From assembly GCF_058153355.1 (NCBI RefSeq), contig NZ_CM177019.1: a stretch of 64,000 nucleotides of DNA. One strand, written 5' to 3'. Positions 14,633 to 20,393 of the stretch are shown piece by piece. Below the pieces are notes generated by a model, which was not told the DNA's origin, ran no database searches, and was given only the letters and a program-made list of their open reading frames with translations. How positions within the stretch are numbered: position 1 is the first letter of the stretch; the number at the start of each line of letters is the position of its first letter. A program made the position numbers and the translations under genes.

Positions 14633-14805
14633 TGTTTTTATTTATTCAATGAATTTATATTTCGTTGAATAGATAATATTTACCTGAATATTAGACGTTG
14701 GTTTTGTGACTGATGTCGAATATTTGAATGTCGGCTTGAAAAATAAGCCGACCATCTCTTTAATTAAGCACAATTCCGTGTAATGTATATGCATTAGTTA
14801 ATCAT

Positions 14806-14878
14806 CTTGTAACTGTTAAATCAGGCAAGGCAATGTTTGAAGTAATTATTACTTCTGACGTGCCTTGCCTTTTTTTTT
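14806..14878 (+). promoter_or_regulatory. RAT-like antiterminator target overlapping an intrinsic terminator, in the leader of the antiterminator gene
   Basis: cttGTAACTGttaaatCAGGCAAGGCA resembles the RAT consensus GGATTGTTACTG...GCAGGCAAAACC; stem caggcaaggca / tgccttgcc with nested palindrome gaagtaat-t-attacttc, followed by a run of 9 T. Confidence 0.6.
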
Positions 14879-14889
14879 GGAGCTATGGA

Positions 14890-15714
14890 ATGATCATCGA
14901 AAAAGTCATGAACAATAATTGTGTACAGGCATCGATGAATGGACAGGAGGTTATCATTTCTGGGCCTGGCGTCGGTTACAACAAAAAATATGGAATGTCG
15001 GTCCCTGAGCATCCGGCTAACCGGATTTTTTATGTCAGAAATGAACAAAAAAATAAACTCTACAAATTGATTGAACATGTGGATATTGAGTATGTTTTTG
15101 TTGCCGAAAAAATAGTGCAATATGCGGAGAACAATCTCGAAAAAAATCTCAATCCATCGCTACTATTGATTCTTGCTGATCATATTTCGAATGCAATATC
15201 CCGAGTCGCTTCAGGCATACAAATTAATAATGTTTTCCTTGATGAAATCAAAGCGTTGTACAAAGCAGAGTATGCGATAAGTCGCGATGCATTAACTATC
15301 ATTAATGAGCAATTCAGCGTTCAACTTCCTGATGATGAGATTGGTTTTATAGCATTGCATATTTTAAATAATTATGAAAATTCAGTTGATTATGAATCAG
15401 TACGGATTATTGAGTTGTCGCAAATAATCACGGGGCTTATTGAAGTTGTTTATAACAGAAAGGTGGACAGAAGTTCATTTAATTATTCCAGGTTCATGAT
15501 ACACCTTAAATATTTTTCAAGTCGCGTATTATGCAATGAAAAAATAAAACAGAAAGATATTGGTGATCTCTATGAACAGTTTCTTGAGAAAGACATTCTG
15601 TTACAGCGCGCAATTCATGAAATTGAAAGGTATTTGTACGCCACTTTTAAATATGAATTGATTTTGGAAGAAAAACTATATCTCTCTATTCGCACCAAAG
15701 TATTAATGGACTAA
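14890..15714 (+). CDS. BglG/LicT/SacY-family transcription antiterminator (CAT RNA-binding domain plus two PRD domains)
   Basis: 274 aa from MIIEKVMNNNCVQASMNGQEVIISGPGVGY (typical CAT N-terminus); RBS GGAG about 10 nt upstream; ORF track start at 14833 lies inside the leader hairpin. Confidence 0.85.
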   Translation: MIIEKVMNNNCVQASMNGQEVIISGPGVGYNKKYGMSVPEHPANRIFYVRNEQKNKLYKLIEHVDIEYVFVAEKIVQYAENNLEKNLNPSLLLILADHISNAISRVASGIQINNVFLDEIKALYKAEYAISRDALTIINEQFSVQLPDDEIGFIALHILNNYENSVDYESVRIIELSQIITGLIEVVYNRKVDRSSFNYSRFMIHLKYFSSRVLCNEKIKQKDIGDLYEQFLEKDILLQRAIHEIERYLYATFKYELILEEKLYLSIRTKVLMD

Positions 15715-15745: not shown

Positions 15746-17326
15746 ATGAAACAAAAGAAAGCCTGGAGTTTTTTTCAGAGCCTGGGAAAGGCATTTATGT
15801 ATCCCATCGCTCTGCTAAGTGTATGTGGCATGATGTTAGGGCTAGGAAGTGGTTTAGCCAGCGATGATATGGCAAAATTAATTCCACTACTGGCTATTCC
15901 CGTAATTAAAACCATTCTTGATTTTATTGTTAGCCTTGGTTTGTTTGCCTTTGTCAATTTACCTGTATTGTTTGCGATAGCTATACCTCTGGGGTTATTA
16001 AAAGAGAAAGAGGATAAAGCCTATGGCGCTTTTTCTGGCTTAATTGGTTTCATGGCGATGCATCTGGGAACGAACTTTTATCTTAAACAACATGACTTAT
16101 TGGTCGCTGCTGATCAAATGTCGACACATGGGCAAACCATTATTCTGGGAATCCAGTCCTACAATACCAGTGTGTTGGGTGGGATTATAGCAGGATTATT
16201 AGTCGCCAGTATGTATAAAAAGATCGTTAACTTACGTATTCCTGAATCATTAGGATTTTATAGTGGCCCACGCCTGGTGCCTATTATTACACTGATTGTG
16301 ATGAGCGGATTTGGTCTGATCATCCCTTTTATCTGGCCGCCATTTTTCAATCTTTTCATGCTCATTGGCCACTGGATTTCAACTTCCGGTCCTGTTGGCT
16401 ATTTTTTCTATGCAGTCGCCGAACGCGTGACGATACCTTTTGGTTTAAATCACCTGGTGACGTCAGTTTTCCGCTTTACCCCCATCGGCGGATCGGCAGT
16501 GATCGGCGGAGAAGAGTATTATGGCACCCTGAACATGTTTATGGCGTACGTCAAAGAGAATGCGGTCATTCCGCTGGATTTGGCGGGGAAAATGGAACAG
16601 GGCAAACTGATGATTCAGTATGGTCTGGCTGGTGCCGCGCTGGCGATGTATCGCACTGCTCATGCTCAAAACAGAAAAGCTATCAAAGCATTGCTTATTT
16701 CCGGGGTGCTTACAGTCATTATTGGCGGCGTCAGCGAACCGATTGAGTTTCTGTTCTTATTTGTCAGTCCACTGCTATTTGTCTTCCATGCTTTTATGAA
16801 TGGATTCGCCAACATGGTCTTGCCATATATGGGCGTGAAGATGGGATTTACTGGCGATCTGATTCAATTTATTAGCTTTGGCGTATTGCGTGGCACAAGA
16901 ACAGGTTGGCCAATAGCGGTGTGTGTCGAAGTGGCCTATTTCTTTATTTATTACTTTGTGTTCCGTTGGACTATTCTCAAATTTAACCTGATGACGGTAG
17001 GCCGTGAAGAGTCCAGTCCTGTCACGCTGAACGCTCATGAGGATACGGCTATAGCGGATATCCCAACGCTTGATAAATCAGAGCTGCAAGCAGCGGAGCA
17101 GATGGTTAAGGCACTTGGTGGTAAAGAGAATATTAAATCCCTGGATAATTGCGTAACTCGTTTACGTTTAACAATCGCAGATATGGGATTGATTGACGAG
17201 GCAGCAATAAAAAGAGCTGGCGGAATTGCGGTTGTTAAACTTGATCAAAATACCCTACAAGTCATTATCGGTACTAAAGTCATCGCCTTGCGTCGGGATA
17301 TGGATAACTACATGGGGATATGCTGA
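15746..17326 (+). CDS. PTS glucose-family EIICB component, MalX-like, no EIIA domain
   Basis: 526 aa; multi-pass EIIC; C-terminal EIIB with phosphorylatable Cys in LDNCVTRLRL; several blocks resemble E. coli MalX as recalled. Confidence 0.88.
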   Translation: MKQKKAWSFFQSLGKAFMYPIALLSVCGMMLGLGSGLASDDMAKLIPLLAIPVIKTILDFIVSLGLFAFVNLPVLFAIAIPLGLLKEKEDKAYGAFSGLIGFMAMHLGTNFYLKQHDLLVAADQMSTHGQTIILGIQSYNTSVLGGIIAGLLVASMYKKIVNLRIPESLGFYSGPRLVPIITLIVMSGFGLIIPFIWPPFFNLFMLIGHWISTSGPVGYFFYAVAERVTIPFGLNHLVTSVFRFTPIGGSAVIGGEEYYGTLNMFMAYVKENAVIPLDLAGKMEQGKLMIQYGLAGAALAMYRTAHAQNRKAIKALLISGVLTVIIGGVSEPIEFLFLFVSPLLFVFHAFMNGFANMVLPYMGVKMGFTGDLIQFISFGVLRGTRTGWPIAVCVEVAYFFIYYFVFRWTILKFNLMTVGREESSPVTLNAHEDTAIADIPTLDKSELQAAEQMVKALGGKENIKSLDNCVTRLRLTIADMGLIDEAAIKRAGGIAVVKLDQNTLQVIIGTKVIALRRDMDNYMGIC

Positions 17327-18501
17327 TGGATGTTTTTAATACTCCTATTTCCCGCAAAGGAACATATTGTACCCAATGGGACTTTTGCGAGGACAGATTT
17401 GGTGTAAAAGATGTATTACCATTCTCTATTTCAGATATGGATCTTCCGATACCGGAAGCTATCATCAGGGCATTAAGAAAACGTCTGGAACACCCGATTT
17501 TAGGGTACAGCCGTTGGCAGCATGATGACTATCTGAATGCGATAGTCAATTGGTATCATCAACAATATAAAACTGAAATCAAACCAGAATGGATCACCTA
17601 TAGCCCAAGCGTGATGTACTCCATTGCTAAAGCAATAGAGTTATTGACATCGCATGGTGATAATATTCTCGTTTTTACACCTGTCTATAATGCATTTTTT
17701 GATATAATTAAACATAGCGAGAGAAATATTCTGACAGCCTCTTTGATTATAAAAAATGAGGGGGGCTACGCTATCAATTGGCAAGATTTTGATCTTAAGA
17801 TTCAAAGCGCAAAGATGGTGTTATTATGTAATCCTCATAACCCGACAGGAACCGTCTGGTCGGAAGAAGAGCTGCATAAAATCGCTGCAAGCTGTGCAAG
17901 ACATAATGTCTGGTTATGTTCAGATGAAATTCACAGTGATTTTGTTTTTAATCGTAGCTTTACATCTGCGCTTAAAATAAAAAAAGAAAAAGTAGTGGTG
18001 TTTAATTCGATATCGAAGACATTTAATGTTCCTGCGCTAACAGGATCGTATATGATTTCAACTGACGATAATTTTAATCATAAGTTCAGAACGATATCAA
18101 GATATCGCGATTTTGTAAACTCCCCATCCGTACTGAATATAATTGCAACTATTATTGCCTATAACGAATGTGAGGGATGGTTAACGTCATTAAAGGCACA
18201 TATTGCCTCTAACATTCAATTCACCCAGCAGTATCTGAACGAAAATACTCCAGAATTGATCGTAAGGCCAGCTGATGGTTGCTATTTTTCGTGGATAGAT
18301 TGCTCTGCTATTGGTTATCCCTTTGATGAATTCTACAGTCGATTAATTCATGAAGGCAAAGTGGGCATTATGGCGGGGAATGTCTATGGAACGGAGGGGG
18401 AGGGCTACCTTCGTCTGAACCTGGCCTGCGGTCGAGAAAAATTATATATGGGGCTTACGCGTCTTGCGAGTGTAATTAAAAATATTAATCAAGGAAAATA
18501 A
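17326..18501 (+). CDS. PLP-dependent C-S lyase of the MalY/PatB family (class I/II aminotransferase fold); alternative start 17320
   Basis: GTYCTQWDF motif near the N-terminus and SISKTFNVPALTGSY with the PLP lysine, both parallel to MalY as recalled; ATG overlaps the PTS stop (TGATG), suggesting translational coupling. Confidence 0.85.
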   Translation: MDVFNTPISRKGTYCTQWDFCEDRFGVKDVLPFSISDMDLPIPEAIIRALRKRLEHPILGYSRWQHDDYLNAIVNWYHQQYKTEIKPEWITYSPSVMYSIAKAIELLTSHGDNILVFTPVYNAFFDIIKHSERNILTASLIIKNEGGYAINWQDFDLKIQSAKMVLLCNPHNPTGTVWSEEELHKIAASCARHNVWLCSDEIHSDFVFNRSFTSALKIKKEKVVVFNSISKTFNVPALTGSYMISTDDNFNHKFRTISRYRDFVNSPSVLNIIATIIAYNECEGWLTSLKAHIASNIQFTQQYLNENTPELIVRPADGCYFSWIDCSAIGYPFDEFYSRLIHEGKVGIMAGNVYGTEGEGYLRLNLACGREKLYMGLTRLASVIKNINQGK

Positions 18502-18503
18502 AA

Positions 18504-19100
18504 ATGAACAGCACGGATCTTATCCATCTCATTAAACATTTTATGCGTAACGAACATAAAGCAGTTGAAGAAGTTATTGATTCTCCCCTTTCGGAGGTCG
18601 CAAATTTAATTAAAGTATTACAGTCTTGTCAGGGGAAAGTTGTTTTTATTGGTGTCGGTAAGTCCGGTATTATTGCCCGAAAACTCGCCGCAACATTTGC
18701 CAGCACTGGAACTCCCTCGTTTTTTGTTCACGGTACTGAAGCCGTACACGGCGATCTTGGGATGGTGGCGAAAGATGATGTTGTTATTCTTATTTCAAAC
18801 AGTGGTGAGACGACAGAAATCCTGGCAACACTACCTAGTCTGAAAAAAATGGGTAATTATTTGATCTCCTTTACCCGCAGTCATCGCTCATCGCTTGCGA
18901 TAAGTTGTGATTTATCCGTTGAAATTCCCGTAAAAAGTGAGGCGGATAATTTAGGTTTAGCGCCGTCATGCTCATCAACAGTCGTTCTGGTTGTTGGTGA
19001 TGCGGTGGCGCTTGCGCTCTCCGAATTGAAAAAGTTTACTCGTGCTGATTTCGGCTTATATCATCCAGGAGGTGCGCTCGGTATTAAAGCAAACTCATAA
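18504..19100 (+). CDS. Stand-alone SIS-domain sugar-phosphate isomerase, similar to the KpsF/GutQ catalytic domain, without CBS domains
   Basis: 198 aa; motifs VVFIGVGKSGIIARKLAATFASTGTPSFFVH and ILISNSGET resemble the SIS domain of arabinose-5-phosphate isomerases; starts 2 bp after the lyase stop with RBS AAGGAAAA. Confidence 0.8.
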   Translation: MNSTDLIHLIKHFMRNEHKAVEEVIDSPLSEVANLIKVLQSCQGKVVFIGVGKSGIIARKLAATFASTGTPSFFVHGTEAVHGDLGMVAKDDVVILISNSGETTEILATLPSLKKMGNYLISFTRSHRSSLAISCDLSVEIPVKSEADNLGLAPSCSSTVVLVVGDAVALALSELKKFTRADFGLYHPGGALGIKANS

Positions 19101-19170: not shown

Positions 19171-20118
19171 ATGAAAAACGTTCTGGTCACCGTTCCCAGC
19201 TTTTCAGCGCGTTGTGTTTCTGCCAGCAAGCTGCTAAGAGAAAATCATTTTAACCTTATTATCAAGAATAATGTGGAGCATCTGGTTAAATCAGAATCCA
19301 CAGTATTACGAGAATCTATTTGCGCAGTCATTGCCGGAAAAGATTGTTATCAAGCGGATACGTTATCGCGACTACCAGGAGTGAAAATAATATCGAGATT
19401 CGGGACAGGGATTGATAATATTGATCTTCATACGGCTCGACAATCAGGTATTGTGGTCAATAATGCTGTTGGGATTAATTCAAATGCAGTCGCGGAATTT
19501 ATCATTGGTCTTATTTTTGCGAGCATGAGAAATATCCCCGGTAGCTATCATGCAATGCAAAATGGTTATTGGGGCGAGTCGCATGGCTGCGAGTTACAAG
19601 GTAAACGTATTGGCCTGCTTGGCTATGGCAATATTGGCAAAACACTGGCGAAAAGGTTATCTGGTTTTGATGTTGAGCTTTTAGCTTTTGACAAACAACC
19701 CGATTTCCAGGCCGCAGGCAAAGATGGAGTTCAGTTCGTATCAATTGAAGATATCTTTATGCAGTCTCATGTCATCATCGTTCTTTTGCCATTTTCTCCG
19801 GAGCTGGAGAACTTCATTAGTCATAAATATTTGTCGATGATGCGCAATGGTGCTCTTATCATCAACGCCGCAAGGGGAAAGTTGCTGGATGAGGGTGCTT
19901 TACTTCAGGTAATTGAAGAACGAAATGTTTTTGCAGCACTGGATGTGTTTAGCTCTGAACCGCTAGCGCAATTTAGCCCATTGCTACATGCCAGGAATAT
20001 CATTACAACGCCGCATATTGCGGCCGCCACCGTTGAGTCATACCAGCAAACCGGGATATACGTTGCCAGGTCGATAATAGATTTCTTTGCAGGAAGGGAG
20101 ATAAAAAACGTGCTGTGA
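19171..20118 (+). CDS. D-isomer-specific 2-hydroxyacid dehydrogenase family protein (NAD-binding)
   Basis: Rossmann motif GLLGYGNIGKTLAKRL; family hallmarks of catalytic Arg, Glu and His appear present; ORF track offers a GTG start at 19162. Confidence 0.8.
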   Translation: MKNVLVTVPSFSARCVSASKLLRENHFNLIIKNNVEHLVKSESTVLRESICAVIAGKDCYQADTLSRLPGVKIISRFGTGIDNIDLHTARQSGIVVNNAVGINSNAVAEFIIGLIFASMRNIPGSYHAMQNGYWGESHGCELQGKRIGLLGYGNIGKTLAKRLSGFDVELLAFDKQPDFQAAGKDGVQFVSIEDIFMQSHVIIVLLPFSPELENFISHKYLSMMRNGALIINAARGKLLDEGALLQVIEERNVFAALDVFSSEPLAQFSPLLHARNIITTPHIAAATVESYQQTGIYVARSIIDFFAGREIKNVL

Positions 20119-20143
20119 GGTCAGCTAAGGAAGATTTCAGGTA

Positions 20144-20177
20144 CAAAAAAACCGCAATCTGTGAAACACATTGCGGT
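20144..20177 (-). terminator. Intrinsic terminator of the tRNA-fMet operon; also the right boundary of the accessory cassette
   Basis: Hairpin accgcaat...attgcggt with a run of 7 T on the minus strand. Confidence 0.7.
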
Positions 20178-20196
20178 TTATCAGCATCATAAGTGT

Positions 20197-20273
<77 letters not shown>

Positions 20274-20316
20274 TCACCGTACTGCTTTACTTCATCAAAT
20301 TTTGATTGGTTGCGGG

Positions 20317-20393
<77 letters not shown>

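Follow-up and report, generated by a model that had tools for sequence, protein, structure and literature searches.

Among the described BglG/SacY-family antitermination systems, E. coli bglGFB shares with the locus analysed here both the organism and the logic, its antiterminator gene coming first, behind its own RAT-terminator (t1). The bgl RAT has the same bulged-hairpin architecture and is identical at U4–U7, A9–G12 and C19–A25 (RAT positions are numbered as in PMC1635312). The first-pass annotation of the locus drew a parallel with bglGFB, which holds for the antiterminator gene standing first behind a RAT-terminator; it fails for the number of switches, as bgl has two RAT-terminators flanking bglG, the second between bglG and bglF, whereas the cassette has one RAT. 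The two antiterminators are 26% identical in protein sequence and differ in their partners (a beta-glucoside EIIBCA for BglG, a MalX-like EIICB in the cassette), and the RATs differ in the top loop, which is 4 nt on a 4-bp stem in bgl and 6 nt on a 3-bp stem here.

In its architecture, nagY-nagE of E. faecalis (PMC9981650) is nearer to the cassette than bglGFB is. There, an antiterminator gene is followed by a glucose-family EII gene, a single RAT overlaps a terminator in the 5′UTR, and that terminator is kept by compensatory mutations (PMC9981650). Host and substrate differ, however, the NagY RAT is poorly similar to the consensus whereas the cassette RAT is near to it, and the cassette adds three enzyme genes. 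The RATs of B. subtilis sacB, sacPA, licS and bglP (SacY, SacT and LicT systems; PMC1635312, PMC3105407) likewise form a 29-nt UUGU.ACUG...CAGGCAA hairpin overlapping a terminator. The sacB RAT also shares G26 with the cassette, but C3, which can pair with G26 in the cassette, is not seen in the four B. subtilis RAT classes. Lastly, glcT-ptsG of B. subtilis places a glucose-family EII under a CAT-PRD antiterminator (GlcT), but with the RAT between glcT and ptsG, a glcT gene that is not autoregulated and a distinctive lower loop in the ptsG RAT (PMC1635312).

The locus lies in a 64,000-nucleotide stretch of E. coli chromosome (the window, whose numbering is used throughout) with the order recD-argA-amiC-cassette-tRNA-Met-mltA. 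Judged from its sequence, its modelled folds and analogy with the family, the leader at about 14794–14889 is very probably a BglG/SacY-type protein-dependent antitermination switch. What this analysis shows is the sequence itself, two mutually exclusive folds with conservation and covariation, which genes the cassette holds, and that each cassette has a single RAT.

Predicted RAT and terminator folds in the leader

The leader contains the following features:
14805–14830, + strand: RAT hairpin, the putative docking site of the antiterminator CAT dimer; the consensus match is 14806–14832.
14823–14870, + strand: intrinsic terminator hairpin of −27.6 kcal/mol, recovered independently by RNAalifold.
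14870–14878, + strand: U tract of nine T, abutting the terminator stem; a T run of at least eight is unbroken in every orthologous leader.
14880–14883, + strand: Shine-Dalgarno sequence GGAG, 6 nt 5′ of the ATG, outside the hairpin and invariant in the leader alignment (A2, below).

The RAT consensus match claimed at first pass is confirmed as a 27-nt match at 14806–14832, read from the sequence as CTTGTAACTGTTAAATCAGGCAAGGCA. The full 27-mer occurs once in the 64 kb window, even with up to three mismatches allowed; the pattern TTGTWACTG-N3-9-CAGGCAA likewise has one match against 0.00 expected, and a looser pattern one against 0.02. In order, the leader reads cttGTAACTGttaaatCAGGCAAGGCA (14806–14832), aatgtttgaagtaattattacttctgacg, TGCCTTGCC with T9 (14870–14878), GGAG and the ATG at 14890. 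It carries the core conserved in the RAT family (UUGUUACUG-loop-CAGGCAA, within roughly 29 nt of RNA) and shares 16 of 29 positions with bgl RAT1. When folded alone, the RAT segment gives a bulged hairpin of −6.3 kcal/mol whose RNAfold architecture is identical to that of the bgl/LicT RAT. The predicted top stem (14813–15/14822–24, CUG/CAG) bears the loop UUAAAU and is separated by an AA bulge (14811–12) from the lower stem (14805–10/14825–30), which is built of U-G, G-C, U-A, U-A, C-G and U-G pairs. Loop 2 (positions 8, 9 and 22) is predicted to be this AA bulge, as in the bgl/LicT RAT. Loop 1 (positions 3, 26 and 27), an internal loop in canonical RATs, is instead predicted to be shut by C3-G26 and U2-G/A27; in the modelled fold, the C3-G26 pair may close the lower internal loop.

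The element has no annotation in RefSeq and is not caught by Rfam: a search of the leader gave no match even at E ≤ 10, RF03530 (bglG-cis-reg) included. This absence is uninformative, as RF03530 fails on real bgl RATs, scoring the true K-12 sites at 22–24 bits against a gathering threshold of 80 bits; the model is without coverage of enterobacterial RATs. According to the review PMC12591593, Gordon et al. (2015) searched K-12 and UPEC for RATs, and they may already list this site.

The basal stem of the terminator pairs AGGCAAGGCA (14823–14832) with TGCCTTGCCT (14861–14870) over 10 bp, six of them G-C, and supports inner stems of 4 bp and 7 bp with a loop of 3 nt. Because the stem is interrupted, a simple terminator scan missed this hairpin. 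The region 14823–14878 combines a stable GC-containing hairpin with an immediate U tract, as an intrinsic terminator should, and the nine T described at first pass as ending about 12 nt before the antiterminator ATG end 11 nt before it. That annotation had also made the RAT the 5′ half of the terminator hairpin; the two do overlap, although only the ten 3′ bases of the RAT, 14823–14832, form the 5′ arm. Taken as a whole, the leader (106 nt) has a folding energy of −33.9 kcal/mol; dinucleotide shuffles average −19.05 ± 3.17 (z = −4.68), and 0 of 200 were equally stable.

Positions 14823–14830 are common to the 3′ arm of the RAT and the 5′ arm of the terminator, and the in silico comparison suggested at first pass gives mutually exclusive predicted folds of −6.3 and −27.6 kcal/mol. 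When the RAT is enforced, the hairpin left over in the window sequence stops 6–7 nt short of the U tract and the leader becomes about 11 kcal/mol less stable. Constrained folding reproduced the exclusion in four lineages, in line with the usual scheme of antitermination by a stabilizing protein.

Three further structures in the leader were considered. An outer helix of the minimum-free-energy fold (14801–14816/14879–14894) consists of weak pairs with no covariation support and is not part of the element. An in-frame ORF of 293 aa from an ATG at 14833, inside the hairpin, was rejected because it is not conserved (neither the ATG nor the frame is kept in Atlantibacter or Citrobacter) and RefSeq and the homologues begin at 14890. 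Finally, a mini-ORF of two codons at 14885–14893 (ATG-GAA-TGA here, mostly ATG-AAA-TGA elsewhere) overlaps the start codon of the antiterminator gene and is kept in 12 of 12 leaders; it probably plays no part, the distance from the Shine-Dalgarno sequence being better suited to the ATG at 14890.

Antiterminator, cassette genes and chromosomal setting

Behind the leader stand five genes:
14890–15714, + strand: antiterminator gene, 274 aa, CAT-PRD1-PRD2; labelled only 'PRD domain-containing protein' in RefSeq.
15746–17326, + strand: MalX-like PTS EIICB with no EIIA domain (TIGR02004, 536 bits, under the cut-off of 632).
17326–18501, + strand: MalY/PatB-family PLP-dependent C-S lyase (TIGR04350, 368 bits, above the cut-off; RefSeq annotation).
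18504–19100, + strand: KpsF/GutQ-type sugar-phosphate isomerase with the SIS domain only (annotation/NCBIfam).
19171–20118, + strand: phosphoglycerate-dehydrogenase-like 2-hydroxyacid dehydrogenase, the final cassette gene (annotation/NCBIfam).

The first gene had been taken for an antiterminator gene at first pass, and the protein searches agree. Pfam finds CAT_RBD (E = 2.7e-14) and PRD for PRD1 (E = 1.6e-23), LicT is the best NCBIfam model, and residues 57–269 align to the LicT PRD structure 1TLV (E = 1e-31). PRD2 (15439–15639) gives a weak Pfam match (E = 0.085), but its homology is confirmed at the sequence level by the 1TLV alignment, and the protein has the CAT domain and two PRDs of the BglG/SacY family. 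The NCBIfam scores all lie below their cut-offs (LicT, 227.7 bits vs 300; GlcT, second, 178.6 vs 320; BglG, 104.5 vs 322), and the sequence points to a family member that is the orthologue of none of the three.

In the register set by 1H99, the H207D/H269D mutant structure, the invariant H98 and H157 (PRD1) and H205 align with LicT H100, H159 and H207. The fourth position, the HPr-phosphorylated His269 in LicT, is taken by an invariant Arg268 (codon 15691–15693), where BglG has Asn and the Clostridial relatives His; three of the four phosphorylatable PRD histidines are present, the same count as in BglG, which also lacks the fourth. In the CAT domain, the RNA-contact residues K5, N8–N10 and G25 (as listed in PMC3105407) are retained. 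Phe31, which is called strictly conserved (PMC3105407), has Tyr30 as its equivalent. Of the two variable positions tied to specificity, one is Pro26 (shared with SacT) and the other Asn31 (shared with SacY).

The EIICB carries the EIIB cysteine motif NCVTRLRL. Its gene starts 31 nt after the antiterminator gene, the other cassette gaps are 0–70 nt, and a scan for terminators inside the cassette found no convincing one. The single autoregulated switch over the whole cassette that was proposed at first pass accords with this layout: given one RAT, tight gaps and no convincing internal terminator, one leader switch could gate all five genes.

In K-12, just 73 bp separate amiC from metV, which means that about 5.5 kb is inserted in the window. 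The GC content of the cassette is 33–46% against 52–57% in the flanks, and the cassette is horizontally acquired. A survey of 5426 complete E. coli genomes found its leader in 1689 (~31%). One of these is CFT073, in which an identical set of five genes, with this leader, adjoins amiC and a T6SS island follows. By sequence, the window cassette matches the c3405-c3410 cluster of CFT073, known from uropathogenic strains, a 'PTS maltose/glucose specific' block of PAI-CFT073-metV (PMC2831201).

Beyond the last cassette gene, CFT073 carries a type VI secretion island of about 25 kb (L047, 1–24291), PAI-metV in the literature, whereas in the window tRNA genes follow the cassette directly (20118–20197) with no T6SS between. 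The PTS cassette and the T6SS are hence separable modules. Lloyd et al. (2009) and Mosberg et al. (2011) reportedly tie the cluster c3405-c3410 to bladder fitness and place in it an unusual arabinose-5-phosphate isomerase. The window has two tandem tRNA-Met (CAU) genes at 20197–20383, where K-12 has three (metZWV) and so has strain 2013C-4282; mltA is about 110 nt nearer in the window, which equals one repeat unit. In the gap that separates the cassette from the tRNA-Met genes, a hairpin at 20140–20190 (AAACCGCAAT...ATTGCGGTTT) makes a good minus-strand terminator with T7 and is presumably the terminator of the tRNA operon; the K-12 sequence differs there.

On the other side (14633–14760), the cassette starts right at the amiC stop codon, for which reason the K-12 amiC terminator (AAAAAGGCGCTGAATGGCGCTTTTTT) is absent. 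The T tract of the sole intervening hairpin (14730–14752, GTCGGCTT...AAGCCGAC) is poor; E. coli E69 and E. whittamii have changes in the arms of this hairpin that apparently leave the stem paired. With the K-12 terminator gone and so poor a T tract at 14730–14752, read-through from amiC probably reaches the RAT-terminator and ends at 14878.

A scan for the sigma-70 consensus upstream of the leader found no promoter on the + strand. By eye, there are weak candidates at TTGAAA-17-TTTAAT (14736–14764) and a conserved GTGTAnnGTATA block (14778–14789), neither of which was assigned as the promoter, the −35 not being conserved. At 14705–14720, about 100 nt 5′ of the RAT, lies TGTGA-N6-TCGAA, which resembles a CRP half-site and whose TGTGA is kept in every lineage compared, even where the cassette sits elsewhere in the chromosome. 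In E. coli ES7 (L020, 1372–2352), one of 1688 genomes, the IS5-family element ISEc68 is inserted at TTAG just 5′ of the RAT (window 14794–14797) and parts the conserved upstream region from the leader. The insertion recalls the IS activation of cryptic bgl, but it sits downstream of both candidate −10 boxes.

Orthologous leaders and Firmicute relatives

Orthologues were gathered via the antiterminator protein, not via the RAT. The antiterminator orthogroup comprises E. coli and E. whittamii proteins at 93–100% identity and, at 77–80%, those of Atlantibacter hermannii, two Citrobacter species and a few metagenome contigs; below it there is a gap down to Clostridial LicT proteins at 35–37%. Wherever an orthologous locus extends far enough, the five-gene cassette is intact, and it occupies at least three chromosomal contexts (amiC-mltA, beside rnt/rnhA, and beside IS1 and an integrase), the leader moving with it. 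In one metagenomic locus (L006, 6502–8447), an IS1 transposase and part of a phage-type integrase come after the cassette, which fits mobility of the five-gene module. A relaxed RAT pattern that finds both K-12 bgl RATs (the positive control) finds exactly one site in each leader-containing cassette locus, always just 5′ of the antiterminator gene.

The 12 distinct leaders in alignment A2 come from E. coli, E. whittamii, Atlantibacter, Citrobacter and metagenomes. Across them, 2 of 27 columns vary in the RAT core and 13 of 30 in the terminator interior; third codon positions of the antiterminator gene are 48–58% identical between lineages. The nine RAT pairs are 99% paired but invariant; as they never vary there is no covariation, and the RAT fold rests on analogy and on sequence conservation, the sort of constraint that a protein-binding site should show. 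The 21 terminator pairs are 95% paired, against 27–56% when the partners are slid, and three of them have changed on both sides in a compensatory manner. Pair 14830/14863 is G-C in seven sequences and A-U in five, pair 14839/14855 is G-C in ten and A-U in two, and a partial leader (L024) has a G-U intermediate. As judged from these alignments, the leader RAT-terminator is real and selectively maintained.

One further sequence was left out of the alignment: L023 (P0021, a contig of Logan ERR3077528, 56% identity) has a frameshifted antiterminator gene and a degenerate RAT but keeps the T-rich tract. It is decayed or error-ridden, possibly a real pseudogene or possibly a poor assembly.

These comparisons bear on two other ways of reading the element. 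The hairpin and T9 might be a constitutive terminator or insulator for amiC that shields the AT-rich island, its RAT likeness being fortuitous or vestigial. The missing K-12 amiC terminator and the poor T tract at 14730–14752 would suit such a role, but the element is kept where the upstream gene is not amiC (L004, L006, L014 and L017), and the chance expectation of the RAT motif is about zero. Moreover, conservation in the RAT core far exceeds that of the terminator interior and of synonymous sites, which a plain terminator would not need. We regard this explanation as highly improbable.

We give just as little credence to the proposal that RAT binding acts mainly by stabilizing the 5′ end of the mRNA or by modulating translation of the antiterminator rather than through termination. 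The review PMC12591593 gives precedents, with reference to Gulati & Mahadevan 2001 and Gordon et al. 2015: BglG is reported to stabilize the bgl 5′ region, and in E. coli many RAT-like sites have no terminator overlap. The RAT described here, however, does overlap a terminator, a strong one with covarying pairs, and the Shine-Dalgarno sequence (14880–83) lies outside the hairpin.

The same RAT occurs in Firmicute licT loci. A metagenome scan with the exact pattern returned 20 contigs, of which eight have the cassette leader (L029, L033–L036, L045, L046); the other 12, mostly AT-rich, have GGATTGTTACTGTTAAATCAGGCAAGACC and a terminator. In the two of these that were examined (L039 and L040), the element adjoins a LicT equivalog (330 bits), and in L039 it lies between licT and a beta-glucoside EIIBCA gene. 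The Firmicute LicT and the cassette antiterminator are 32% identical. In the Firmicute licT-RAT-bglP loci (L028, L039, L040 and others), the 23-nt TTGTTACTGTTAAATCAGGCAAG is identical to the cassette element, TTAAAT loop included, save for position 8, and a terminator comes next. They differ from the cassette in that the base of their RAT is the canonical GGA...ACC and in its siting between licT and the EIIBCA gene. Since its upper half is shared with these loci, the leader element is, by sequence type, a bona fide LicT/SacY RAT. A Firmicute origin of the element would fit both the shared RAT and the low GC content.

Probable antitermination mechanism and its specificity

From the family, we infer that the CAT domain binds the RAT, that PTS phosphorylation exerts control, and what the signal is. 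On this model, transcripts would start at a promoter or arrive by read-through from amiC, and the RAT hairpin, weak alone, would be made first. By default, the stabler terminator (14823–14870 and U9) would capture the 3′ arm of the RAT, and transcription would stop 11 nt before the ATG. The MalX-like EIICB, presumed by analogy to be both sensor and kinase (the phosphoryl donor) of the antiterminator, would cease to phosphorylate PRD1 at H98/H157 when busy transporting. The dephosphorylated antiterminator would then dimerize and its CAT domains clamp the RAT, so that the basal 10-bp stem beside the U tract could not form and RNA polymerase would read on into the antiterminator gene and the rest of the cassette. 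As the antiterminator gene lies behind its own terminator, the result would be positive autoregulation, dependent on basal read-through.

Alternatively, a non-cognate antiterminator (E. coli BglG, or else some other protein of its family) might act on the RAT and control the cassette by cross-talk. Cross-talk is documented in B. subtilis, the RATs and CAT domains of the family are similar (PMC1635312, PMC3105407), and the upper and middle stems of the cassette RAT are identical to those of the bgl RATs. Against this, the bgl RATs have A3, U8, A26 and A27 whereas the cassette RAT has C3, A8 (C in Atlantibacter), G26 and G27 (A in other lineages), and LicT requires a purine at position 3 and A26 (PMC1635312). 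Furthermore, at every locus the RAT is inherited together with the antiterminator gene next to it, and this holds in hosts and settings that have nothing to do with bgl. Control by a non-cognate protein thus seems to us improbable, if slightly less so than the two readings set aside above. On sequence grounds, we infer that the cassette RAT and CAT domain are a cognate pair insulated from BglG.

A wider proposal can be put forward tentatively, as possible but unlikely. The RAT and CAT domain would form a distinct orthogonal class (C3-G26; Pro26/Tyr30/Asn31; degenerate PRD2) with HPr activation perhaps altered by the degenerate PRD2 and its Arg at the LicT His269 position, within a self-contained module that a few Enterobacteriaceae received from Firmicutes. 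The E. coli copy of its terminator would double as the amiC terminator, and amiC read-through would feed a uropathogen-fitness operon.

Cognate antitermination, as set out above, makes the element an additional member of the BglG/SacY class, not a new mechanism. It would give E. coli a second BglG-type switch, probably orthogonal to the first, in ~31% of complete genomes. The compact RAT-terminator is a ready reporter (leader-lacZ or leader-gfp) for finding the PTS substrate, and the same leader reporter could also probe control of the antiterminator by the EIICB.
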